This document shows positions 41,811 to 59,343 of a DNA stretch of 64,000 nt, piece by piece. Made by a program: the position numbers and the translations under genes. The stretch is from Podospora anserina (lineage: Eukaryota), in contig CM030334.1 of the NCBI GenBank assembly GCA_017654855.1, positions 2,852,001-2,916,000 of the forward strand, read 5' to 3'. The notes under the pieces were generated by a model that was not told where the DNA came from, searched no databases, and worked only from the letters and a program-made list of their open reading frames with translations. Numbering within the stretch: position 1 is the first letter of the stretch; every line of letters starts with the position of its first letter.

Positions 41811-44800
41811 ATGATGCCCTCGGTCTTGCCATCACACCGGAAGCGGATGGCAACCGATGAATTACAGGAAGAACGCTCCATTCTACCGCCGCCGTCCGCT
41901 AGGGTTCCCCGGGGCCTGGTTGACAGTGACCGAAACCAGATCCTAGAACCTGCCGTTGCCAACGAGTGCGTACTTTTGCTGGTTTGATGTCTCAATAGAC
42001 TGTTTGCTGACAGTTGCCAGTGCCGTGGCAGAAACACCTCAGCGGACTTCCCTTGGACTATCGCAGGACCGTCAGTTAGTAATCCGGTCTTCGACAACCA
42101 ACAATGTAGTCAGCACGTATGTCCCACCCCGACGTCCAGCCAAACGGAGCGACTTCAGCATTGCCATCATCTGCGCGCTCCCATCAGAGGCCACTGCCGT
42201 GGACGCTGTCTTCGACGTCTACTGGGATGACAAGGGTCCACCTTACGACAAAGTTGCTGGTGATCCCAATGCGTATACCACCGGTGCCATTGGTCGTCAC
42301 AATGTTGTTCTCGCACAGATGTCAGAGATAGGGAAAGTAAGCTCTGCGGTGGTGGCATCCAACTGCAGGCACAGTTTCCCCAACATCAAGCTCGCACTTG
42401 TTGTGGGGGTCTGCGGCGGCGTCCCTTTTAGCTCTACAGACGATGTCAGCACAGAGATTATACTTGGCGATGTTATCATCAGTACTGGGATCATTCAGTA
42501 CGATTTGGGACGACAGTATGATGATCACTTCGAAATCAAGGCCGGGCTTTTGGATACTCTCCCCAGGCCCAGTCGAGAAGTACGCTCTTTTCTCTCGAAA
42601 CTGACGCTCCCGCGGCAGAGGAAGATGCTTGAAGAGGAAATGGCCAAGATCATGTCGGTCCTGTCTGCCCTGCCGGCCCAGTTGGGCCTGTCTACCCAAT
42701 ATCCAGGCGCAGCAAAGGACAAGCTTTATAAGGCAACCTACAGCCATATCCGCGAAAAGGAGTTGTGCGAGACCTGTGGGTGCGACGGCGAATTAGTGAC
42801 ACGCGAGAGGCTCGGTCATGAAACTCCGCATCCTATGGTTCACCTGGGTACCATGGCTTCAGGCGACAGCGTCGTGAAATCAGCAGCATATCGCGACAAG
42901 ATTGTGGCGGACTCGAAATTGAAATTGGAGGAGAACATCATAGGGTTCGAGATGGAAGGAGCAGGAGTTTGGGACACATTCCCTTGTGTTGTGATCAAGG
43001 CTGTCTGTGACTATGCGGACAGTCACAAGGCGAAAGGATGGCAGCCATACGCAGCTGCTACCGCCGCCGCGTGTATGAAAGCATTCTTGAAGAAATGGAC
43101 TCCTTCTCCTTCTCTTCAGGACGATACCTGTACGTAATAGTCTCATTAGCTTGCAATCTCTACATACTATCTCGGAAGTTGTCTCATGCGCATTTAGTTT
43201 CTGTTCCATACCCACGGAACAATAACTTCGTCGGTCGGTCAGATATTTTAGCGAAGCTACATCAACTGTCGTGCAACTCCACCTCACAGACTCGAGTTGC
43301 TCTCTGCGGTCTTGGGGGCATCGGGTAAGTTCAATTCGTTCATGCTGTTAATATCACCTAACACCTGACAGGAAAACACAAATTGCCATCGAGTTCACAT
43401 ATCGGATCCAGCGTACTTACCCCAACATATCAGTCTTTTGGGTTCACGCAAGCAACCACGAGCGGTTCCGTGAAGCATACACTGCTATCGCACAAAAATA
43501 CCGGATCCCCGGGCATGAAGATCCCAAAGCAGAGGTGCTGCCATTGGTAAAGAGCTGGTTAGAAAGCCAGGAGCGTGGTCAGTGGATCATGGCAATCGAT
43601 AATGCTGATGATCTGGAGCTTTTCAACAGCAATGGTAGATTGGGACGCTACCTTCCAGAGTGTGCGCACGGGACTATCCTCATCACCACAAAAAGCCTGC
43701 AGGTCGCCTTGAGACTAACCAAAGGAATGGCCTCGTCCGTTATTAGTATCGAAAAAATGGATGAAGTCGATACAGCCCAGTTGCTCTCAACACGGCTTGC
43801 AGGAATCGACACGATGCCCGGGGATTATGCAGGACTTTCTGCTCGGCTTGAGCATCTACCATTGGCACTGGTTCAGGCGGCTTCGTTCATCCAAGAGAAC
43901 AGTATCACGATCTCTCGATACATCCAACTCCTGGACGAGAGCGACGACGAGACTCTTATCAATCTACTTAGCAAAGACTGTGAAACGGATGGGAGAGACT
44001 CGGACACTCCTCGCGCAGTAGCAGAGGTTTGGATTATCTCTTTCAAGCAAATTCACAATCGGAACACCCTCGCAGGCGAGCTTCTTGCAATCATGAGTTT
44101 CCTCGATCGCCAGACCATTCCCTACGAATTTCTTTTCACGTACGCCAAAGACCACGGTGCAGGAGAGCTTCAGCTCATCGAGGCACTAGGGGTATTAAAA
44201 GCGTTTTCATTTGTCACTGAAGACAAAGACCAGAAATTTGATATCCATCGACTCGTGCATTTGGTCACTCGAAAATGGCTGGTTCAGAACGGCATAAAGC
44301 AAAAATTCGCCGAGCGGGCACTCTTGGTCGTGACTGTGTGTTTCCCGTGGGGGGAGTACAAGAATTGGACTATATGCAACGCATACCTCCCGCACACCAC
44401 TGCTGTGTTAAAACTAGGAGAAGACATTTCCTCAAGACAAGGAAAGCTGGCGAGAGCAAGCCTTCTTCATAATGCGGGCGCGCTTTTCTCTGGACGGGGA
44501 GATTTCCAGAGAGCGGCATTGTACCTGAAAGAAGTATGGGAGATCAGTCAAGCCCACTTGGGCGAAGAGCACCCAGGCACATTAACCAGTATGAACAACC
44601 TAGCATCAACATACCAGTCACAAGGCCGGTGGAAGGAGGCCGAATTACTACACCTGCAAGTACTGGAAACTGGAAAGAGGGTTCTAGGAGAAGAACATCC
44701 CCATACATTGGCTAGTATGCACAGCCTAGCATCAACATACCGGTCACAAAGCCGGTGGAAGGAGGCCGAATTACTACACCTGCAAGTACTGGAAACTGGA

Positions 44801-46882
44801 AAGAGGGTTCTAGGAGAAGAACATCCCCATATATTGGCTAGTATGCACAGCCTAGCATCAACATACCAGTCACAAGGCCGGTGGAAGGAGGCCGAATTAC
44901 TACAACTGCAAGTACTGGAAATTCGAAAGAGGGTTCTAGGAGAAGAGCACCCAGGCACAATAACCAGTATGAACAACCTAGCATCAACATACCAGTCACA
45001 AGGCCGGTGGAAGGAGGCCGAATTACTATACCTGCAAGTAGTGGAAATTCGAAAGAGGGTTCTAGGAGAAGAACATCCCGATACATTAAATAGTATGCAC
45101 AACCTAGCATCAACATACCAGTCACAAGGCCGGTGGAAGGAGGCCGAATTACTATACCTGCAAGTAGTGGAAATTCGAAAGAGGGTTCTAGGAGAAGAAC
45201 ATCCCGATACATTAAATAGTATGCACAACCTAACATCAACATACCAGTCACAAGGCCGGTGGAAGGAGGCCGAATTACTACAACTGCAAGTACTGGAAAT
45301 TCGAAAGAGGGTTCTAGGAAAAGAATATCCCGATACATTAAATAGTATGCACAACCTAGTATTAACATACCAGTCACAAGGCCGGTGGAAGGAGGCCGAA
45401 TTACTACACCTGCAAGTACTGGAAACTGGAAAGAGGGTTCTAGGAGAAGAACATCCCCATACATTGGCTAGTATGCACAGCCTAGCATCAACATACCAGT
45501 CACAAGGCCGGTGGAAGGAGGCCGAATTACTACACCTGCAAGTACTGGAAACTGGAAAGAGGGTTCTAGGAGAAGAACATCCCCATACATTGGCTAGTAT
45601 GCACAGCCTAGCATCAACATACCAGTCACAAGGCCGGTGGAAGGAGGCCGAATTACTACAACTGCAAGTACTGGAAATTCGAAAGAGGGTTCTAGGAAAA
45701 GAACATCCCGATACATTAAATAGTATGCACAACCTAGCATCAACATACCGGTCACAAAGCCGGTGGAAGGAGGCCGAATTACTACACCTGCAAGTACTGG
45801 AAATTCGAAAGAGGGTTCTAGGAGAAGAACATCCCCATACATTGGCTAGTATGCACAGCCTAGCATCAACATACCAGTCACAAGGCCGGTGGAAGGAGGC
45901 CGAATTACTACAACTGCAAGTAGTGGAAATTCGAAAGAGGGTTCTAGGAGAAGAGCACCCAGGCACAATAACCAGTATGAACAACCTAGCATCAACATAC
46001 CAGTCACAAGGCCGGTGGAAGGAGGCCGAATTACTATACCTGCAAGTAGTGGAAATTCGAAAGAGGGTTCTAGGAGAAGAACATCCCGATACATTAAATA
46101 GTATGCACAACCTAGCATCAACATACCGGTCACAAAGCCGGTGGAAGGAGGCCGAATTACTACACCTGCAAGTACTGGAAACTGGAAAGAGGGTTCTAGG
46201 AGAAGAACATCCCCATACATTGGCTAGTATGCACAGCCTAGCATCAACATACCGGTCACAAAGCCGGTGGAAGGAGGCCGAATTACTACACCTGCAAGTA
46301 GTGGAAATTCGAAAGAGGGTTCTAGGAGAAGAACATCCCGATACATTAAATAGTATGCACAACCTAGCATCAACATACCGGTCACAAAGCCGGTGGAAGG
46401 AGGCCGAATTACTACACCTGCAAGTACTGGAAACTGGAAAGAGGGTTCTAGGAGAAGAACATCCCCATATATTGGCTAGTATGCACAGCCTAGCATCAAC
46501 ATACCGGTCACAAAGCCGGTGGAAGGAGGCCGAATTACTACACCTGCAAGTACTGGAAACTGGAAAGAGGGTTCTAGGAGAAGAACATCCCCATACATTG
46601 GCTAGTATGCACAGCCTAGCATCAACATACCGGTCACAAAGCCGGTGGAAGGAGGCCGAATTACTACACCTGCAAGTAGTGGAAATTCGAAAGAGGGTTC
46701 TAGGAGAAGAGCACCCAGGCACAATAACCAGTATGAACAACCTAGCATCAACATACCAGTCACAAGGCCGGTGGAAGGAGGCCGAATTACTACAGTTGCA
46801 AGTAGTGGAAATTCGAAAGAGGGTTCTAGGAGAAGAACATCCCGATACATTAAATAGTATGCACAACCTGGCCTTAACTTGA
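41811..46882 (+). CDS. Fungal NLR-like STAND protein: PNP_UDP_1 (nucleoside phosphorylase) - NB-ARC - TPR repeats; stops at TGA 46880-46882 unless bypassed
   Basis: Start ATG 41811 or 41847; introns ~41966-42020, ~43130-43197 and ~43325-43371. PNP motifs IAIICALPSEA, GDPNAYTTGAIGRHNVV, LVVGVCGG, GFEMEGAG, IKAVCDYADSHK. P-loop GLGGIG/KT split by an intron; Walker B IDNADD; ILITT; LPLALVQA; IHRLVH (MHD-like); then kinesin-light-chain-type TPRs. Confidence 0.92.
44558..46882 (+). repeat. Tandem array of 18 complete + 1 partial 126-bp (42-aa) highly conserved TPR units
   Basis: LGEEHPxTLxSMxxLASTYxSQxRWKEAELLxLQVxExxKRV at exact 126-bp spacing (unit starts 44558+126n); most nucleotides identical between units. 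Confidence 0.97.
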
Positions 46883-47599
46883 AGGGGTCTGGGGCGGCCT
46901 AATGATGCGTTAGAGCTGCTTGAAGAATGCCTTTGTCTGAGAGAGAAAGTGCTTGGGTTAGATCATCATGGGACCATTAACACACAAGCGGAAATAGCTT
47001 GGTCATATATGGAGCAAGGTCGATTACCTGAGGCTGAAAGAATACAAGCGGGAATGCTAGGAAAGCGGAAAAGGATATTGGGAGAAGAGCATCTTCACAC
47101 GCTGATCAGCATGATTAACCTCGCACATACTTGGAAGGTCATGGGTCGCCTTGAGGCAGCTGTAGAGTTGATGCAGGAGTGTGTTCGCCTCCGTCAGAAG
47201 GTCTTGGGCTCGGATCATCCCGATACCGTCGAAAGTTTGTCGGCACTGGAAGAATGGCAGGATTTGAGAGGCGAAGGCGGTGGCAACGGGAACACACACG
47301 GCAATTCTGAGGCAAACACTGCAATGAAGAGCGGTGAGAACGCCGGTGGGAGCAGCAGTCACCACGAAGACGTCGATAACGGCACGGATGACGATGCTGG
47401 TTACGAGGGCAACGAGAACGGGAACAACAAGGCTGGCCAGAGCTCAGAATCTCAGCAATGTCAGGCCACCAGGGGCGGGGATGAGAAAGGCAACATCGGG
47501 GACGGAATCCAAGATGGCGAGGGGCGGCGCAGCAGCGAAGATGGGAAGACAGTTGAGGCTGACGAAAGTGGATATGGGCCTAGGCCAGAACGTTTCTAG
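46883..47599 (+). other. In-frame continuation of the NLR beyond the TGA: divergent C-terminal TPRs plus a Gly/Asn/Asp/Glu-rich tail
   Basis: Same frame as the 43535 ORF (46949-43535 = 3414 = 3x1138). Reads ...NLALT*RGLGRPNDALELLEECLCLREKVLGLDHHGT...NLAHTWKVMGRLEAAVELMQECVRLRQKVLGSDHPDT. Confidence 0.85.
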
Positions 47600-48359
47600 G
47601 AATATTATCAGGATAAACAGGGAGGGCTGGAGCAGAGCTTTGTCTAATAGCTAACGCCACTTGAGGAACTACCTAGGAAAGGAGGGGACGACAGGTATCG
47701 TGGAATACTCAGTTTCCTTCTTTTATTCTGATGTTTTTCAGCTTTTGACAGTATGTTTCAGGGCCACATACCTATATCGCGGATTTCATTCTGTAGCTTA
47801 ATTGTGTGTATCACGCCTAGGTAGCCATAGCTAATTACAAAATATTGTGTGGCCCGGAACCATACCTTCGTCATCACCAACAATCGATATTCCGTACCAC
47901 TTCCAGCCAGCTTTGCTCGGCTTCTTGCTGTTGCTACTTCAACAGGGACTGTAATTGAGCTGATGTACTTACTGCTGGTACTCTTTTGACCAGAGCAATA
48001 TACATTTCTTGGACACGATAGAAACGTCGAAGACCGTAAAGACAGGGGGGCATTGCAAAGGCAGCCTTTAGATTTTACCAAGTCGACATGATGTCAACCA
48101 GTACAGGTGATGATGGTAATCTGTTCCATTCTCCCTAACATAACATACAGTATTCCTCTTCAAACCCAACTTCACTCTTCCCAAGCCAAAAACCAACCCC
48201 CTAACAATACCCCATCTCTTCTAACCCCCCACCAAAAACCCCAATCATAATCCTAACAATACCCTATCTGTCTTTCCTTACAGCAATCAATCCAGAATCA
48301 AAAGAAAACGACTCCCAAATAATAAAAACTCCAAGCTAACAAAACCCTTCCCCCACCAT

Positions 48360-50680
48360 CTAATACCCCTGCCCACCACTCCCACCCCCCGACCCAGAAA
48401 TCATCAAACCAGCCCTCTTCTGCCTAACAGCCATCTTCTCCTTCCACTCCCGTCCCAGAGCCCTACTCCGTTCCGCAGCCTGCTCCCTCGCCATCTTGGC
48501 CGCCTGCTCCCTCTCCTTCCTCTCCCTCTCCCTCTCCAAAGTAAAAGAATTATCCCTCTTGAAAATCTCCTTCCCCCTCATCTTCTGCTGCTGCACCTCC
48601 TCCTGGCTCACAGTAGTAGTAGTAGTGCTGCTCCTCTTCCCACTACTGCTAGCAGCAGAAGTGGCCGACATCCCCCTGCTAGAAGAACCCGCTCCCCCAG
48701 CAGAAGGAGCAGCAAGAGATGTCCGACCTCTAGTCGTCGTTGCCGTCGTGGTCGTCAGAGACACAGCCGCCGCTGACCGTGTCGAAGCAGCCACCGTGCT
48801 AGAAGCATACCCACCCCCAGTAACAGCAATGGAATGCCTCATTCTCGCCGCAGAAGCTGACGTAGGCGCAGTAGCAGTCGAGGTATGCGTCGGCGTCGTC
48901 GCCTGTCCCCCAGCCTCCATCCTAGCCTGCCTCGCCCGGCTAGTAGCCGTCTCCCGAACTGAATTTCCCCCACTGCTGCCAATAACACTCGCACGAATTG
49001 GTCTAGCCTTGAATTCCCTCCTCTTTTTCTCCTCCTCTTCTTGCGCCTTCAGCCGCGCCTCGCGTTCCTCCCTCTTCCGCCGTGAAATCGCCTCCCCAGG
49101 CAACTCAAACGTCGGACGTGTCAACGGCTTGCTAGACTTGGCATGCGGCTTGCTAGGCGAGAATTGCGCGGCAATAGCGGCAGCTTCTTCGGCAGAAACC
49201 TGCTGAGAGAGCCTCGCGGCGCGCTGTTCCTTCAGGCGACGGGCGACAGCCTCACCAGGGAGTTCAAAAGCCGGGACGGTGGGTGCTCTGCTACATTTCA
49301 CCGTGGCCTTGGGAGGCAGCAGACTAGAAGGACGGGCAATAGAGCGGCGGACTGTAGAGGTGTTGGCGGCGGTCTTGGAAGTAGAAGCAGGCTTGTCATC
49401 CTCCCTAGCCGATGACGCCGACGTCGACTTCCGGACCGACGAGCTGCGTTCAGCTGTGCTGCGTGTACGGGTAGTAGTGTGAGTAGTGGTAGTAGTAGAA
49501 GTCGACGCTTTAATAGTCGAGGCCCGTCTTGTCGACGTTGAGGGCTGCTGCTGAACAGGAGCCTCAGGAATAGACTCAAGAACCGGCTCGGTGGCCAACT
49601 CAGGGGAAACCACCCTTTCCAACTGAGCCACCTTATTAAGGGCCTCAAGTTCCTCCTCAAGCTTATCAAGTTCCTCAACCGAGTCCTCAATCCTCGAAAG
49701 CGGCCTAGCAGGCTGCGGCGACGGCAAAGGAGACAAGTGTTCCATGCCCATCAACGACTCATCAACCTTGATACTCAACACCGACTTTGGCCTCTCCTCC
49801 TGCCCCTCCGGCTGCAGATTCTCCTCCCCGCCCCTCAAAACAGTCGAGTTCTCCTCCTGCGAAACATTCCCAACAACACTGCTATCCGCCTCCTCCACAA
49901 CAACAGACTGCTCCACAGCAGACATCTCCTCTTCACTCTCCACCCGAGTAGCTAAAAGGGTATACCTGTTAGTGAGCGAGCCACCATGGTCGACAGAAGC
50001 GCCATCAGACTGCGTCCTGTTATGGATAAGGTTGCACCCAAACAAGACATTCTTCCCACCGCCGCCGCTGCCCAGATCGGGTTCTTGGTCTTCTCCGTCA
50101 TGGGAATCACCGAGAGACCGGTTTCCCACCCGGCGGCGCGACTTGCTGCGAAACGGGAGCGGAATCGTAAGAAGCCATTCGAACTGACCTTCCTGGTGCT
50201 TTCTTATCTGCTCCAAGTTGCTGGGGAGCCGGTGCTCGGCTTGGGCTAGGGGGTTGTTGTGCTTGAAGTCTACATCAACCAAGAATTAGCATTGACTCTG
50301 TAAAATGTCTCAAGACAGTGAAGCTCACCGTCAGAGGCAACAGTTGTCTCGCTTCCGTTGGTGGTGGCAGAAACCACACGGTGCTTGTCAAAAAAAGGAT
50401 GATCGTATTCAATGTTGTTGTCAACAGACAACCGAACCCTCCGGTCCTTGGCCTTGTGTCCCTGCTGACAATTGCCTTCCTTCGAAGAGTATTCAAGATG
50501 GAGGCTGCCCAGATCTCGGGCCAGAGAATCAATGTTGAGCGAGTTAAGATTGTGAATATCGCTCAGGACGGCGAACTTGTTGCCGGGTGGTAAGTTGGCC
50601 TTTTGCGAGAGATGGCTGTGGTCAGTGTGGATGTCAAAGTCGAGACTCGGCCGATGTCTCGAGGTGGTGGTGGCCATCAT
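48360..50680 (-). CDS. Coiled-coil protein with TPX2-like FKARP motif; putative microtubule-associated protein
   Basis: Two exons (intron ~50270-50328). Motifs SRIEDSVEELDKLEE, two FELPGEA repeats, EEEEKKRREFKARPIR and C-terminal AREQAAERSR coiled coil. Function is inferred. Confidence 0.65.
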
Positions 50681-51606
50681 TGTTCTTTAAATCGCAGCAA
50701 TAAACCGACGAAATATGCCAAGGCTAGCCACAGGGTCTCAGACCTCAAAGCACACGATGCCCCCAAGAGTGTGAAAGGCCAGGGGGGTCGGAATGCAATT
50801 TCGCGGTTAATCAGCGGACGATTGGTCAGTGCCGAGGGGTCGAGACTTTGGGGAAAATCAGATGGAAAGATATCGTTCAGTTATCAGTTGATCAAGAATG
50901 CTTGGTAGCAATTGGAGCGTAGTGCTCAAAAGACAGCAAAAGCAATATGGACGAGAGAACGTATGTGTAGATTGTGTGTATGGTGTTGATGGGAAAAGAG
51001 GACATCTCCAGAGGACTGGCAGTCTCTTGTTTACTTTCCAGCAAACGCGTCGGGGAGGGGCGTCCCTCTTTGCCTTCTCCCATCCTTCCCCTCTGTGCCT
51101 TCTTGTCTCGTGTAGACAAGGCATGATGGGCATACTGCATCTCCCACTCTGCAGCTTCCCCGACCTTCCAAAGGAGCAGCAGCACAGCTCCCGCAACCCC
51201 ATCATCAAACACCCCACCAGAACCGTTCTCGGTCCCAAGTGACGATACCCCACCTGCAATTCCGCCGGAGTCCCTGTCCCAGTTGCACATCATTCGGATT
51301 TGCACCCAAAGAGGCTAGACTTAATGTTCCCGTCGTTCTGATGGCTGACTAAGGAACGCGAGAATGACGCGCCTTGCTTGGCAGAATGTACCCCGCCTTG
51401 TCTCTGGTCTTATCGGCTTGAGGCACAGCAACCTGGATCGATATGATATCGATATTGTAGTTTATGCATCCAACAGAGACCAATCGACCTCTAATCCATA
51501 CATATGACAGTCCATCCTTAACCATGCTTTCAGGTGTGATGTGACCGGCTGTGGATTGCAAGGAGGAGAGGCCAACCCAGTGTGATTCTCTCATGTCGCA
51601 ACGGTT

Positions 51607-52142
51607 TCAGCCTGATTCCTGCTCTTCAGCTGCGCCCTCCGCATGTGCTTGTAGAGCAGGAGCATGTTCGGTCGGGATCCGGACGAGTGTCTGTGGCAAG
51701 GGCGTTGTGTCTTCGGCTTCGGGGTTGGGCTTGGGAAGTTTCGCTGCTGCCAGTTAGTGCTGCCCCATTCCGACAGGAAGGGAACTCGGAGAGATATGCA
51801 TACCCGATGCCATGTTGATCGCCCTCAGCACATTATGCCAATTAGCGAAGACCAGAGCAATGGCTGCCAGAAAGTCAGTAACTTGGGCAGGATCAAGCCA
51901 GCCACAGCCCAACAAGACAACACACCTTCCGTTCCGTCTGAGAGAGTTCCTAACTTCTGTTCAAGAGCCTCCATCTGTGACGCAACTGCAGCACTCAAAT
52001 CCCGGAGCTCTTTAAGGTTCTCGAGTTCGGCCTTCTTCTCGTTCACTCGTGCCACCAGAGCTGGAGACTGGCCCCCCGCGCCAGGCCCGAGAGAGGGCTG
52101 TCGCATGTGGGATGGGAAACTTCGGGTTGGGTAGCCGGACAT
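51607..52142 (-). CDS. DAD2: DASH/Dam1 kinetochore complex subunit Dad2
   Basis: Three exons: LVARVNEKKAELENLKELRDLSAAVASQMEALEQKLGTLSDGTE/AIALVFANWHNVLRAINMAS/AKLP...PLPQTLVRIP. Confidence 0.9.
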
Positions 52143-52630
52143 CTTAGCGATCCGAGGTGTTGGCAACGAGGCAATCAAGTCGAAGAGACAGCTGTCGAGG
52201 TCAGGTATAGATACTGAAATGATTATTCGTGCAGTTCACACATGTCAGTAGCGGACTCGTTTTTCTGACGTGTGTTGGCATCTGGAAGTGGGGCAGAGCT
52301 CGGCTTTGGAGCCAGCCAAAAACGGTTGCCAGTCAACACAAGTCTCGAGTGGTCCGTGCATAGTGCAATGCTATGCTTCTTTAGGAAGTGAAGTAAACAC
52401 TGTGCAGAAATGACAAGCAAATTATCCATGTAACTTCGTCAGTGTCACCGCCCTTCCCGACTTCTCGCACCTTCAAATCCACCCGCCGACCACCCGCCGA
52501 CCACCGGAATCGCGTCGCCTGCGACCCTACAATCATCGAATACCGCCCCGCCGATCCTTTTTCAGTGAGAGCCTGTCTCACCAGCACACTGGAAACAACC
52601 TCGAGCTGTTTTGCTCGAACAACATGCACA

Positions 52631-54736
52631 ATGGCCCGACTCAATGAGCCACCTGTGTCTGCTACTGACGGCAATCTGGAGATCTGTATGCTCTTCCACC
52701 CGTTGTCTGCCATGATTCTGTGTCGCTGACATTTATATTGTGTAGTACGTCGAAAGTTTTTACGGCAAAATCGAGACATCGCCAGAATCAACTCGGATCA
52801 GTCACAGAAAATCCGTCGCCTCGAAAACGACTGCGCGTGTCTCCTGTCCGAGAATTTGGAGCTCAGAGGCCAGATACTCCGTCTGGAAAAACAACTAGAG
52901 GACAACAGCGCGCGAAGGATAGCCGACCATGCGCTCGAGATCAAGGCAAAGCTAGAGGCCCAACTCGCCGAATTTGGCGCGTTGCTAGGGAACCTGGGAG
53001 TGGAACCACCGGCGAAACGACATTCTGGTGCAGATAGGAGATTCTCAAAATCGTCGCGGCCGAGCATCTCCAGGACGCCCCCAGCGATAAGAAGACGACG
53101 AGACACCAATGTGGACGCAGAGACCTTGGCTGCCCAGGAGGGGAGGATGCCGCCGATATACGAGAACAAGAGCTATCAAAGAGCGACCATGAACAGCGAG
53201 GAGATTATGGCCTTGTGTGCTGCCGCTGCCGACACGAGTGCGGATTCATTGGATCTAGGACCACCGCCTGTTTCGCGGTTTATCGATGAGGAGCCAGTGA
53301 AGAAATCTTCGCCAATCCGAAAATTCGACGACGGACAGCTGAATTTGTCATCGCCACCCAAACTCGATTTGACCAAGAAACTGGAGGCCAGCCCAGAACC
53401 GAGCAAGATGGCAGAGACCTCGCCCATGAAGGATGTTCAGCCTGAAAAGAGATCACAGTCTTTTGAGCAGCAGCCACCAACACCACCTACGCAAACAATA
53501 AGAGCGGGAGCGAAGAGGAAATATGGCGACGAAAATAATATCCAGACTACGTTGGACCAAACAGCCAAGGCATTCAAAGACGTGGTAGCTGCTGAAAAGG
53601 CTCTCCCAGCCGGCGATATCTTTCAGAAGCGTAGGAGCATCAAGGAATTGCCAGCGAGCAAGAGGGACAGGGCAAGGGCACCATTATCTGCAAAAAGCAC
53701 GAACGAGGATTTCATGTCACCCAAGAAGATGGCGATCAAGCCAAAGCCGGTTGAGGAACCAAAGAAGGAAAAGGCGCCAGAACCGAAAGAAAATAAGGAA
53801 CAACCTAAAGCACGGAAATCAACAGTTCCCGCGATCCAAGTCCCGCCAGTCGCCCTCCCGCCTCCAACAGTCCTATCCGTCATCGCCGAACCAGAGGCAC
53901 CGCTCCCTATGTCAATTCTCGCCTCCCCAACAACACCCGGCCGACCCTCCTCCGTCGAGCCACTTCCCCATGATACCCCACCACCAGCACATATCTCCTC
54001 CGAGGGTGAGACCTCCCGCCCAAGCCGCCGCGCCCGCCCAGCAATAAGCTACGCTGAACCTAACCTCCGGGATAAAATGCGTCGCCCTACCAAGGAATTA
54101 TTCGATGCCGTCTCTGGCGAGGGGAAATTCCACCGCCCTAGCACTTCGGCAAATCCCAACCCAACATCAGCTCCTACCTCCTCTGCTAAGCCAAGGTCTG
54201 AATCAACCGTTACATCCAGCGGGGGGCTCTCAGCCAGCGTCCACAAACCACCTCCCACTGGTAGTCCCCTTGCAGCGAAAGAATCAATGCAAATAGACAA
54301 CATAACCTACGACAGAAGGAAACGCCCCTCTCTTGCGATTCGCGAGCCTGAGCCGCCGGCAGAACAACAACCAGAAATCGACCCGTATGACTTTGCCAGC
54401 ACATCCACCTCAACACTAAGTCTAGCGTCACCACCACCACAACCGAAGCGGGCGGCAAGGAAATCAAGTATGGCTGCTCAGGCGGCGTTACATAAGATGC
54501 AGCTAGAAGAGGAGAGGGAGGCGGATGTGGAGAGCGGGACGAATAGGCCGAGGGCGAGGAAGGCGAGGGCGTCGATGTTGGCGCCGAAGAAGAGTGCGTT
54601 TTTGGGGGAGTATGTCGAGGAGAGCTCAGTTGGTACGGTGGGGGATGAGAGTACGGGATCTGTGGAGAGTGGGAGTGGTGGGAAGGGGAAGGGAAAACAA
54701 GGGGTTGTGGATAGGAGGAGGAGTATGATGCTTTGA
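52631..54736 (+). CDS. SGO1: Shugoshin
   Basis: MARLNEPP.../LRRKFLRQNRDIARINSDQSQKIRRLENDCACLLSENLELR N-terminal coiled coil. SGO motif RPSRRARPAISYAEPNLRDKMRRP. One intron ~52686-52746. Confidence 0.93.
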
Positions 54737-55245
54737 TTTTTGGGTGCATTTGTTTGACTGGAGTTTGGGGGGCAAAGCGTTAGGGGTTTCTGGGATAGGA
54801 AATGGCATTTTGGGAATTGGGAGTTTGACGACAAATTGTGTTAGGTTTCGTTCTTGTCGTTCTTTAACAACAAATGGGGAGGGGGAAATGGCTGCTGGAT
54901 GATACCAATTTTGTTTTGTTTGTGAATCGTTATTGGGTTGTTAAATATCAATCATTTTGAAAGACTACCGTAACTGATGTTACCTTTTGGTATGTTTGAA
55001 ATGAGCATGATTCGAAGTATTAGGTAATATTTTGATATTGTTTGGAGCCCCTTTTCAAAGAGCTCTCTCTCTCTTGAGCTGAGTTGGATGACTGCAATGC
55101 CCAAACAGCTCAGGCACAACACATCTTTCACGCTTTGCTTGCTGTACAGCAGCAACGCTCCATAACCACTCAAACGCTCCTCTTTTCTAGATCCGGTACC
55201 GTATTCCCTACTCCCTCGACTCTGTCTCTCTCATCTTCCCGGGTA

Positions 55246-56005
55246 TCATGGACCAGTTGGCTCAACCGGCTTGGTATACGTCACCTTTTCCACCGCCACA
55301 TTCTCAACCCCATTCGCGTCTTTCCTCAGCTGGTAGACATATAGTGTCAACGAGATTCCTTGTACCTGTTTTCCACTGTCAGCATCTCCCCTCCTTACCA
55401 TCCCACCCCTCAAAACTTACATCCATCAAACAGAAGCTCGGCACCATCTCCTCCTCCCCCTCCCCCTCCCCATCCGCCCAATCTGTCGAGAACGCCCCCG
55501 TCGCCGTCCCAGGGTTGATAAAGAACTTGTCCATGTACTCAAAGCACTCGAATTTATGAGTGCCGCCCCAGCAGAGGACGTCGACGTCAAGTTTGTTGGC
55601 CTCTGCGAGTAGGAGGTCGGGCTCGGAGCTGACGAGGGTGAAGCCTTCGAGGAAGCCGATGCGGACGCCGCCGTGGGTGACGACTTGAGTCAAAGGGAGG
55701 GAGGTGGCTTCGACATCCATGCGGCCTTTGACGATTTTGAGGTCGGGGGAGATGGAGCGGAGGTATTCGTAGGTTGATTTGTCGGTTAGGTTACCTAGGC
55801 AGAGGGTTTGGGAGATTTTTCCGGGGGCGAGGAGTTTTTTGAACTGGAGGGGGAGAGGTTAGAAAGGGGTGGTTATTGAATAGGGGGTTGGGGGGGGGTT
55901 GGATTGGGGGATGGGGGGAGGGAGGTAGGAGGGTACCTTTGCTGGAATGTCGAGGGCGCGGTCGGGTATGTGAAGGTCGCCGATTACTAGGATTAGGAAG
56001 GCCAT
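55246..56005 (-). CDS. VPS29: Retromer subunit Vps29
   Basis: MAFLILVIGDLHIPDRALDIPAK/FKKLLAPGKISQTLCLGNL...DVDVLCWGGTHKFECFEYMDKFFINPGTATGA...PSFCLMD/VQGISLTLYVYQL. Confidence 0.95.
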
Positions 56006-56931
56006 TGTTGCGGTGGTGGATGGGTGTGAAGCGCTTCGGTGGTGGGTTGCGCTGGAGGGTTGAGCTGTTATTCTATGCGCCGCGGGCTACTGTATCGGGG
56101 GAGGTCCAGTTGGATCTTAGTTGGAAATTGAGACGCGGTGTTTAAGGTCGTCTGGACTATATCAACCGGTTTGGTATCGACCCTCGTAGCTTGATGTCTG
56201 GTTAAGTGGCAGCGTTATGTATTGGTGTTGACTGGAAGCTATCTGATGATAGCTGTCGTGGCCGGGTCTTGGCTGACTGACCACGGTGAACATCGGTCAA
56301 GGAACGATAAGATTAGAAGACCCCTGGGCGTTGGAGGCTGATGTTGGGGCTGGGACTGCGGGGTAGCAATGACGAACGACACTCCAGCCTCCCCCACTTC
56401 TCCACAGTCCCTCTAGCGGCGAGCGGGTCCGAAGACGGCTTCTTCGCCGGACGGACCCGGCCCTGGAACAAATCCATTCTTCCATTGCACAATGTTCGGT
56501 GCATTTGGCATCAAGACGAGCATTATCAAAAGGGGCAAAGCGTCTAGAATTGGACACTTTGGCATCCGTGACTAATAGCAAACTGTAGACTTTTTCCAAC
56601 CGGGCCTAGACAACCTGGAAGCCGTTTAGGTGTTGAAACGGATCTTGTCTGGGCGGTCAGTATTTTTTGTTCATTTTTATACGAACCCAAACACCGACTT
56701 TTCTCCTTGTTGCTCTCTTCATTCCCGTCTTTTCTCCGGTGGCCCTGCTTGTCAGACTTATTTTGAATATCCCATACACATTCGTCCGTTTCTTCCGTCA
56801 TACAGAGTCCAATCACACCAAGAAACCCTTCCGTTCCAGGTACCTGGACAGAAGAGACAAAGCAAGGCGTTGGATACCGTCGGTTCAGGCAAGATAAGGT
56901 ACAGAACGGTGTGGGGAGCTTGCAGACGCAC

Positions 56932-58531
56932 ATGGTGCTTATACCCGAGGTCTCCAAACTGTCGCGCTCGGCGTTCAGACGGTTAGGAATGACCCCGCCA
57001 AAAACACCGGACGCTCCCCCCGCCCGTTTATCGTTGATCTCACGACATCTTGCCCCCGTATATCCGATCAACACCCCCTACGCTGTCGAACGTCTTCCCA
57101 GCACCGTCGACACCTCACTTCTGCCCAGGATTCAAGTGCGCGAGATCACGACAACCACCCCCAAGATGTCTCAACCCACCCACCCAACGCTCCTGATTCC
57201 AGGACCCATTGAGTTCGACGATGCTGTCCTCCAGTCCATGAGTCACTTCAGGTATGTAGGGGTGGTTATGAAGTGTCTTGCCGTTCTGTTTAGGCTTTGA
57301 AGGATCCAGAAGCTGACACCCACATCTTCCCACTCATCAGCGAAAGCCATGTGAGCGCCGGTTTTGTTGCTACCTTCGGCGAGACCCTGTCTATGTTGCG
57401 CAAGCTGTTCCAGACCACCGATCCTGCGTCTCAACCATTCGTTCTCTCTGGATCCGGTACTCTCGGCTGGGATTTGGTTGCTGCCAACTTGATTGAGGCT
57501 GGCGAGGACGTGTTGGTGCTTGGAACCGGCTATTTTAGTGATGGCTTCGCCGACTGCCTCAGAGTGTATGGTGCCAATGTCACCGAGCTCAAGGCCCCCG
57601 TTGGCACCAAGCCCACCCTCCCCGAGATTGAGAAGGCTCTGTCGGAGAAGAAATACAAGGCGATCACCGTCACCCACGTTGACACATCGACTGGTGTCTT
57701 GAGCGAACTCAAGAATCTCTCTGCTCTTGTCCACAAGGTCTCGCCAGATACCCTCATTATTGTCGACGGTGTCTGCAGTGTTGCGTGTGAGGAGATTGAT
57801 TTCGATGCCTGGGGTCTTGATGGTGTTGTCACTGCCAGTCAGAAGGCCATTGGCTGCCCTGCCGGTCTGTCGATTTCCATGTTCAGCGGTCGTGCCATGA
57901 AGGCTTTTGAGAACAGGAAGAGCCCTCCCTCGGCCTACTTCGCTTCTATGAAGAACTGGACCCCTAGTAAGTTTACCTCGCGTTGATATATACGCATTAC
58001 AGCCCGACTAACGCGATTAGTCATGCAAAACTACGAGGCCAAGAAGCCCTCTTACTTTGCTACCCCCTCGCCACAGCTTGTCCACGCTCTTCACACTGCT
58101 CTGAGCCAGATCCTTGCGAAGCCTGTGGCTGAAAGATTTGCCGGCCACAAGGCCGCCTCAGACAAGATCAAGGCTGCCATCGGTGCCCTTGGTCTTCAGC
58201 AGGTTGCGGCCAACCCTGATGAGCAGGCTCACGGCATGACTGCCATCTATCTCCCTGAGGGCGTCAAGGGCGCCGAGCTCCTGCCTATCCTCGCGAAGAA
58301 GGGTGTTGTGTTTGCCGGTGGTATCCACAAGGAAATCGTCACCAAGTATATCCGTTTCGGTCACATGGGTGTCAGTGTGGTGAGTAATCCCAGTGTATTT
58401 GTGTTTGATTATCAAGCAACAATGACGACTAACAAGGCAATCCACAGCTCGACCCCACCAGAGGCGATATTGAGCGTGCTGTCAAGGCTTTGGAGGAGGG
58501 TCTTGCTGAGCTTGGATATACCAAGTCTTGA
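56932..58531 (+). CDS. AGX1: Alanine-glyoxylate aminotransferase (class V PLP); core starts at ATG 57166, with in-frame upstream ATGs at 56932 and 56989
   Basis: LLIPGPIEF, SGSGTLGWD, THVDTSTGV, IVDGVCSV, TASQKAIGCPAGL (PLP Lys), YFATPSPQL, YIRFGHMG. Three introns. Confidence 0.92.
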
Positions 58532-59343
58532 GCGTGGAATGATGTAGGGAATGAGGTGAAGTTGGATCTAAAAGCAATGGCATTATGGCCATAGAGGGGT
58601 GCATAAAAGAAGCCATCTTGAAATAGACAATCTGTGTTTGAATGCCCAACACCATCTCAAACCATTTCAAACGAAGCAGATGCCCCCTTGGGGCTCTTGT
58701 TCCCAAAGCAGTGATGGATATGCCCATAAAGGTAAGAAACAGGTTTGCAATTCAGGTACTGGAAGTAGGTTCATTGGCTGCAGTTGACGTGCAGGCTGTT
58801 GCAGAGCTGGTGGGTGTTCCCGAGCCACTGGAACCGAAGAGGTGTTTGATGAGGGTTGCTGGCAGAATGATTGGCTGAAGCTCAATGATTGATTTCAAAG
58901 CTGCCGGATAATTTAATGACCAGCTCCGGCTTCAGCGCTTCTGGGCATCTCTGGAAGAGCCGACTCTCCACCGCCAGCGAAGCAGGCTGCTGCATGCAAG
59001 GCGGGGTTGCTCGCCTAGCAACAATCGAGAGGCTGGTGGGGTTCGGCCTTCTGAGCTTTCGACCCGACGTTCAATTCTCTTATCCATACTTCCGTCATCC
59101 CACTCAACCCAGCACTTGCAACGCTCTTGCTTTACCAAAATCCTGACCGCCCTCTCCCCCCGCCTTCCATTCAAGACCTTTCTACAGAACCTTACCATCG
59201 ACAAAGTGGACAGCGACCGTTGTGCCTGAGACCTCGTCCTCTCTCCTCGCAATCCTTCCTCTGCGCACCCTCTCGGCCTCGGTTCCCCATACATACCTCA
59301 ACCACAACCACAATCACACAGCGATAGGTGTGCGACTACGACC

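Follow-up and report, generated by a model that had tools for sequence, protein, structure and literature searches.

Seven of the 13 NB-ARC NOD-like receptors (NLRs) of the fungus Podospora anserina carry tetratricopeptide repeat (TPR) arrays of high internal conservation (HIC), and these arrays show repeat-number (length) polymorphism (PMC13449251). The passages of that study on gene decay describe stop codons, frameshifts and transposable element insertions as often affecting the NLRs of this species complex, sometimes in a strain-dependent way, pseudogenisation likewise being strain-dependent. For one gene, Pa_3_8170, two divergent allelic classes are described; the main-text passage naming it does not give its conservation status (PMC13449251). 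Here we report on an NLR-type gene in a 64,000-nucleotide stretch of the P. anserina genome (GCA_017654855.1, contig CM030334.1, positions 2,852,001 to 2,916,000 of the forward strand), hereafter the window, in whose coordinates all positions are given. The gene joins a PNP_UDP N-terminal domain to a nucleotide-binding oligomerization domain (NOD) and a TPR array, and its frame is interrupted by a TGA at 46880-46882, 11 nt beyond the end of the array. With a probability of roughly 0.8, in our estimate, this TGA marks a nonsense allele, derived and young, in a fungal gene of NLR type that is highly variable.

The TGA closes a stop-to-stop open reading frame (ORF) at 43352-46882, and the same frame stays open behind it for 238 codons (46883-47599), up to the presumed ancestral stop at 47600-47602. 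Within the first of the diverged cap TPRs it falls in helix A, at a position where a later TPR unit reads NLAHTW. A preliminary description of the window, made from its letters, had noted this match to a tryptophan and some 240 intact codons past the stop, and both observations hold. In the three orthologs from the species complex that contain the stop-bearing unit (P0121, P0233 and P0234), the unit reads SMHNLA[V/L][T/A]W-RGLGRPNDALELLEECL, or, over a longer stretch, SMHNLA[V/L][T/A]W-RGLGRPNDALELLEECLCLREK, with tryptophan in all three; in Cercophora samala (P0123), the first cap unit after the repeat run, which we take as the matching unit, reads SMHNLASSW-MGLDRLDDALELFQECL. The P0121 unit was read directly from the sequence, MAFFT having misplaced it owing to an internal deletion. 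Since the relatives have tryptophan here, tryptophan is, by this comparison, the ancestral state and the stop a derived TGG>TGA change.

Similarity to the orthologs does not fall off behind the stop. Past the TGA, the cap shares 92.5% of its residues with P0234 and the tail 95.2% with P0121, values no lower than in the rest of the gene: identity to the four orthologs of the complex is 90.3-93.5% over the PNP_UDP and NOD parts, and 92.7-93.5% over exon 2 (PNP_UDP). Since neither a second lesion nor excess divergence is seen downstream, the lesion would appear to be young, or else the downstream region is still constrained. These comparisons bear out the first of the three explanations that the preliminary description had offered for the stop, a recent nonsense allele, the others being a 57-nt in-frame intron (46857-46913) serving as a switch and recoding by RNA editing. 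As to the mutation itself, repeat-induced point mutation (RIP) is not favoured. The change is a G>A in GpG (CpC on the opposite strand), the RIP context given for P. anserina in the pertinent passage is CpA/CpT (PMC13449251), and C>T/G>A changes account for 19 of the 116 differences from consensus in the array, which is no excess. We treat it as an apparently ordinary transition.

Public sequencing runs were used to follow the site in RNA and DNA. Twenty of 24 runs cover most of the stretch; none is recorded as RNA, and six were presumed to be RNA, their nature being assessed from the contigs themselves. Contigs of the DNA-like run X12 and of X15, X16 and X18 (three studies) were placed on 46740-58700, where ten introns of neighbouring genes (GT..AG or CT..AC, between 49951 and 58447) served as a reference set, verified by RNA contigs and extracted. 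X15 skipped nine of these introns, X16 all ten and X18 seven, which identifies the three runs as RNA, since X12 skipped none. The set includes a 237-nt intron (49952-50188, minus strand) and one with a non-consensus donor, GTACCC (55844-55936, minus strand). At the stop, a single contig per RNA run extends, with no gaps, from 46807 to 47895 (X15), 47877 (X16) and 47855 (X18). The joint 46856/46914, which removal of the 57 nt would create, was seen in none of the three RNA runs, each of which has a contig across the site. Results therefore showed that the gene is transcribed and that its dominant message retains both the 57 nt and the UGA. The contigs of X15 and X16 contain no letters differing from the window, and that of X18 contains one. 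All contigs start at 46807 since the array collapses in short-word assemblies, and this position is not a transcript start. At the other end, the three RNA runs give no cover in the bin 47937-48335, a weak hint of a transcript end, and with the three contig ends this would give the full-length ancestral message a 3' untranslated region at about 47603-47895. Read depths were not used for expression ranking.

We propose that a single G>A transition changed TGG to TGA, replacing the tryptophan in the first of the diverged cap TPRs by a stop. The gene is still transcribed, its message keeping the 57 nt and the UGA and continuing to the old 3' end. Translation would be expected to end at 46880-46882, yielding a protein of 1633 residues with the PNP_UDP domain, the NOD and 18 TPR units, and lacking the last 240 codons, which encode about 2.6 cap TPRs and, after them, an acidic tail rich in Gly and Asn. 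The intron-like motifs around the stop would be by-products of codons (Ser-Met-His, Pro-Asn and Leu-Glu) common to the relatives. Since the C-terminal region is variable among the relatives, the truncated protein may still act as a receptor.

A first alternative is that 46857-46913 is removed from part of the transcripts, perhaps conditionally, in the manner of an exitron, giving a full-length receptor minus 19 residues (helix A). Exitrons are introns internal to protein-coding sequence, with a length divisible by three (3n). The elements pointed to in the preliminary description are all present: GTATGC at 46857-46862, CCTAAT at 46898-46903 and TAG at 46911-46913 delimit 57 nt, the removal of which would join ...LN-K-LLEECL in frame. 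A minor isoform of this kind would be compatible with the contig data. However, the joint is absent from all three RNA runs while 7-10 of the 10 neighbouring introns are spliced in the same runs. GTATGC is a codon string for Ser-Met-His, since the array carries it in 15 of its 18 registers, which lie 126 nt apart from 44715 to 46857. The gene models of P0121, P0233, P0234 and C. samala translate all 19 codons of the proposed intron, the orthologs of the complex as SMHNLA..W RGLGRPNDALE. Since the P-N and L-E residues are present, and translated, in three Trp-bearing, stop-free orthologs, the branch/acceptor motif probably predates the stop, as judged from the ortholog proteins. Moreover, the spliced product would miss helix A of a 42-residue unit. 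Taken together, we consider splicing of the 57 nt unlikely, and the intron switch of the preliminary description finds no backing in these contigs.

Several points nevertheless weigh against the nonsense allele. The candidate fits the local intron grammar (57 nt, GTATGC, CTAAT 11 nt from the 3' end, TAG), its donor, branch site, acceptor and length all lying within the range of the ten verified introns; nine of those are 54-93 nt long, two have a GTATGC donor, four a TAG acceptor, and all ten have CTRAY 9-24 nt from the 3' end. A pattern scan of the plus strand of the 64-kb window (GTRNGY, 45-100 nt, CTRAY 9-24 nt from the end, YAG) found 25 candidates, of which nine have a 3n length; since these nine together cover only 582 of 64,000 bases (0.9%), overlap of one of them with the sole in-frame stop is a ~1% event, a notable coincidence. 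Logan contigs drop minor variants, through which a minority spliced or edited form would escape. The one letter in which X18 differs is unlocated; the list of differences lying well inside contigs does not include it, and 46882 sits 76 letters in from the start of its contig. We take it to lie elsewhere than at 46882. Finally, a search of other assemblies for short gene fragments matching the cap and tail, from which TGG or TGA might be read in other strains, returned 115 hits at E <= 1e-30, the best at 51% identity and none near-identical.

A second alternative is restorative A-to-I editing of UGA to UGG at 46882 in perithecia, by which the full-length receptor would be made only in sexual development. 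Editing that corrects premature stops is known in Sordariomycetes (PMC10776026, PMC11156358), ADAT genes are up-regulated in sexual development of P. anserina (bioRxiv 10.1101/2024.12.09.627484), and the frame downstream of the stop is intact. Folding predicts a hairpin whose 8-nt loop (46876-46883) contains the adenosine at 46882, and A at +1 and G at +3 are both favoured. However, this fold is weak, with three G-U pairs, a z of -1.68 and 11 of 200 shuffles doing equally well; the codon is UGA and the base at -1 is G. According to the passages on sequence preference in a 2024 review and a 2016 preprint, more than 70% of fungal A-to-I sites have U at -1 and loops are preferred, the tRNA substrate of ADAT has U at -1 in every case, and the premature-stop corrections described are UAG>UGG, UGA appearing only as a product of UAA editing (PMC11156358, bioRxiv 10.1101/059725). 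The preliminary description had rightly anticipated that UGA would be a poorer fit than UAG with U at -1. In the RNA contigs, 46882 is A in two of three, and the third has the one unlocated difference not listed as internal; no editing sites are reported in the passages of the P. anserina preprint on sexual development (bioRxiv 10.1101/2024.12.09.627484). Editing at 46882 is thus possible in principle and a poor fit, and we regard it as improbable; the proposal of recoding by editing is unsupported by the RNA contigs.

Some minor or stage-specific form arising through either route is possible at a low level. A stage- or condition-specific bypass of the UGA, whether by ADAT-type editing of a G-preceded hairpin-loop adenosine or by minority splicing of the 57 nt as an exitron, would in our view be a long shot. 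Were it true, perithecia or stress would be the only settings in which an NLR under balanced polymorphism is made full-length, the cap-less form being made otherwise, and a bypass by editing would extend restorative editing beyond the UAG stops known so far.

Contexts known to make stops leaky are UGA-C, in particular UGA-CUA. Translational readthrough could draw a small amount of full-length protein from the 238 codons open past the stop; we hold this to be very improbable, since the context is UGA-AGG and the open frame is already accounted for by a young lesion. Editing, low-level exitron use and readthrough combined retain perhaps a small share of the overall probability, greater than that of any one of them. 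Lastly, an assembly or sequencing error, with TGG in the real genome, which the preliminary description had kept in view, is next to inconceivable, because the X12 contig runs unbroken over 46807-55884, and 46882 is covered by contigs of the DNA-like run and of the three RNA runs, each from a different study; in three of these four contigs (X12, X15 and X16) every letter agrees with the window. Overall, the interpretation in the preliminary description is partly supported, and the nonsense allele is the reading that we retain.

The gene model was obtained by aligning P0121 to the window and reading GT..AG sites, the three upstream introns being predicted from this alignment rather than from RNA. 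Exon 1 would extend over 41811-41965, starting with the ATG at 41811 and encoding the N-terminal leader MMPSVLPSHRKRMATDELQEE; residues 1-54 of P0121 match 41811-41972 by tblastn. The 55-nt intron 1 (41966-42020) would run from GTGCGT at 41966 through CTGAC to CAG, the sole placement that gives the ...VANDAVAETPQ... of the ortholog. The pattern scan also flags a 66-nt 3n candidate (41966-42031) with the same donor and a later acceptor, use of which would cost the protein the four residues DAVA; by alignment with the ortholog, the form of 55 nt ending at 42020 is preferred. Exon 2 (42021-43129) encodes the nucleoside phosphorylase-like N-terminal domain (PNP_UDP_1, Pfam PF01048; E 7.6e-11, score 42.3 bits, cut-off 25.1), an effector-type domain of the kind that defines the N-terminus of fungal NLRs. 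Removal of the predicted 68-nt intron 2 (43130-43197, GTACGT...TAG) restores an ortholog-like ...QDDTFSVPYPRNNNF..., and exon 3 (43198-43324) would end within Walker A (GLGGIG|KT). The predicted 47-nt intron 3 (43325-43371, GTAAGT...CTAAC...CAG) divides the P-loop, and joining the exons across it gives the GLGGIGKTQIAIEF of P0121. Because this intron splits Walker A, ORF-level scans miss the P-loop. All of these features, like the ones below, are on the plus strand.

The first part of exon 4 (43372-44578) holds the NOD module, an NB-ARC-like STAND NTPase, and a linker. Its segment in the window matches DUF7779 (E 3e-05) and, weakly, AAA_22, with no Pfam NB-ARC match; in ortholog P0121, NB-ARC scores 19.8 bits (E 5.1e-4), short of the cut-off of 23.5, and PF00931 (NB-ARC) is annotated in precomputed lists for relatives at 53-55% identity. 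The translation contains Walker A, GLGGIGKT, across predicted intron 3, and a stretch IMAIDNADD that we read as Walker B. Exon 4 continues with the TPR_10 array (44579-46869), the candidate intron and the stop, and beyond it the 238-codon open frame encodes about 2.6 cap TPR units and a Gly/Asn/Asp/Glu-rich tail. Read through the stop, 46604-47599 matches TPR_10 at E 3.6e-68, giving the gene the C-terminal repeats expected of a fungal NLR. The joined exons (41811-41965, 42021-43129, 43198-43324 and 43372-46879) comprise 1633 codons with no internal stop, or 1873 codons if the TGA is read through.

Within the array, Tandem Repeats Finder counts 18.2 copies of a 126-bp (42-aa) unit, with 92% matches, no indels and a score of 3763. 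Near-identity of units within a gene is the mark of the HIC class, for which the published criterion is a T-REKS Psim of at least 0.7, and with 92% identity and no indels the array shows this near-identity. Of the 126 columns, 27 are variable, mostly at first and second codon positions (12, 8 and 7 over positions 1, 2 and 3); with this distribution and no C>T/G>A excess, the array looks like a live HIC sensor array. The variation among units recombines few residue states (e.g., HT/GT/DT, LN/LA/IT and ETG/EIR), a pattern that suggests shuffling of unit types rather than random drift.

Searched with the NOD region, the closest relatives were those of P. pseudoanserina (QC764_308170, 92%) and P. 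bellae-mahoneyi (QC761_308170, 91%), with P. pseudopauciseta (QC763_308170) and P. pseudocomata (QC762_308170) in the same 90% clusters; C. samala (73%) and Apiosordaria backusii (64%) were farther off. By sequence similarity, the gene corresponds to the QC76x_308170 genes of the P. anserina species complex, and, going by the numbering of the locus tags, it is probably Pa_3_8170. With the cap region, 2600 of 3897 candidates were hits, generic TPR proteins only, with a best identity of 55% and no ortholog. The PNP_UDP core of the window is 91.7-93.3% identical to those of the four named Podospora species, among which identity is 97.0-98.7%; with two assembly fragments its identity rises to 100% and 99.7%. 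Two other proteins of the set P0235-P0238, namely P0236 and P0238, represent further PNP_UDP haplotypes at ~90-95%. The divergent PNP_UDP haplotype of the window is consistent with the published allelic classes at Pa_3_8170.

The C-termini of the orthologs differ from one another. In P0122, the array is followed directly by the last cap unit, the earlier cap units, including the stop-bearing one, being absent; P0121 keeps the stop-bearing unit, and its cap passes from ...CLREK to ECVRLRQ... with the stretch between them missing; the last residues of P0233 are ...NWKDMGSS, with no tail; and the extreme C-terminus of P0234 differs. These differences could be real rearrangements or artefacts of the gene models.

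If the stop is read as a young nonsense allele, the gene adds one more truncating allele to a family in which stop codons and frameshifts are known, along with pseudogenisation that varies by strain. For annotation, the model should end at 46882 or be flagged as a young pseudogene, and no 57-nt rescue intron should be added, even though automatic annotators may be tempted by one, the motif being good. If the gene is Pa_3_8170, for which balancing selection is reported, knowing whether the stop goes with one allelic class would show whether that class is null or encodes a functionally shortened receptor.

Compared with known systems, the candidate intron resembles exitrons in its 3n length, its position within a coding exon and its canonical GT..AG sites and branch motif, and differs from them in that no spliced form appears in any of the three RNA runs. 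The restorative editing known from Fusarium graminearum and from Neurospora crassa (PUK1, AMD1 and ~70 other genes) likewise concerns in-frame stops at tryptophan positions, followed by an intact frame, in Sordariomycetes; however, it proceeds as UAG>UGG with U at -1, whereas the site in the window is a UGA preceded by G, for which the contigs show no edited form. In its repeats, the gene agrees with the Podospora HIC NB-ARC/TPR NLRs (e.g., PaPlp1/het-z and PaPnt1), which likewise have 42-residue TPR_10 units with few variable columns, and the 42-residue repeat structure 4Y6C/4Y6W is of a similar type (match to PDB 4y6c, 'anserina putative kinesin light chain', at E 5.1e-30). Animal kinesin light chains, the best PDB matches (E 5.4e-41), have only the repeat type in common with the gene. 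Closest of all are the orthologs QC764_, QC761_, QC763_ and QC762_308170, which have the same PNP_UDP domain, NOD, array of 42-residue TPRs, cap and acidic tail, are 90-95% identical to the gene outside the array, and differ from it in carrying tryptophan in place of the TGA and in a repeat number and cap content that vary by species.

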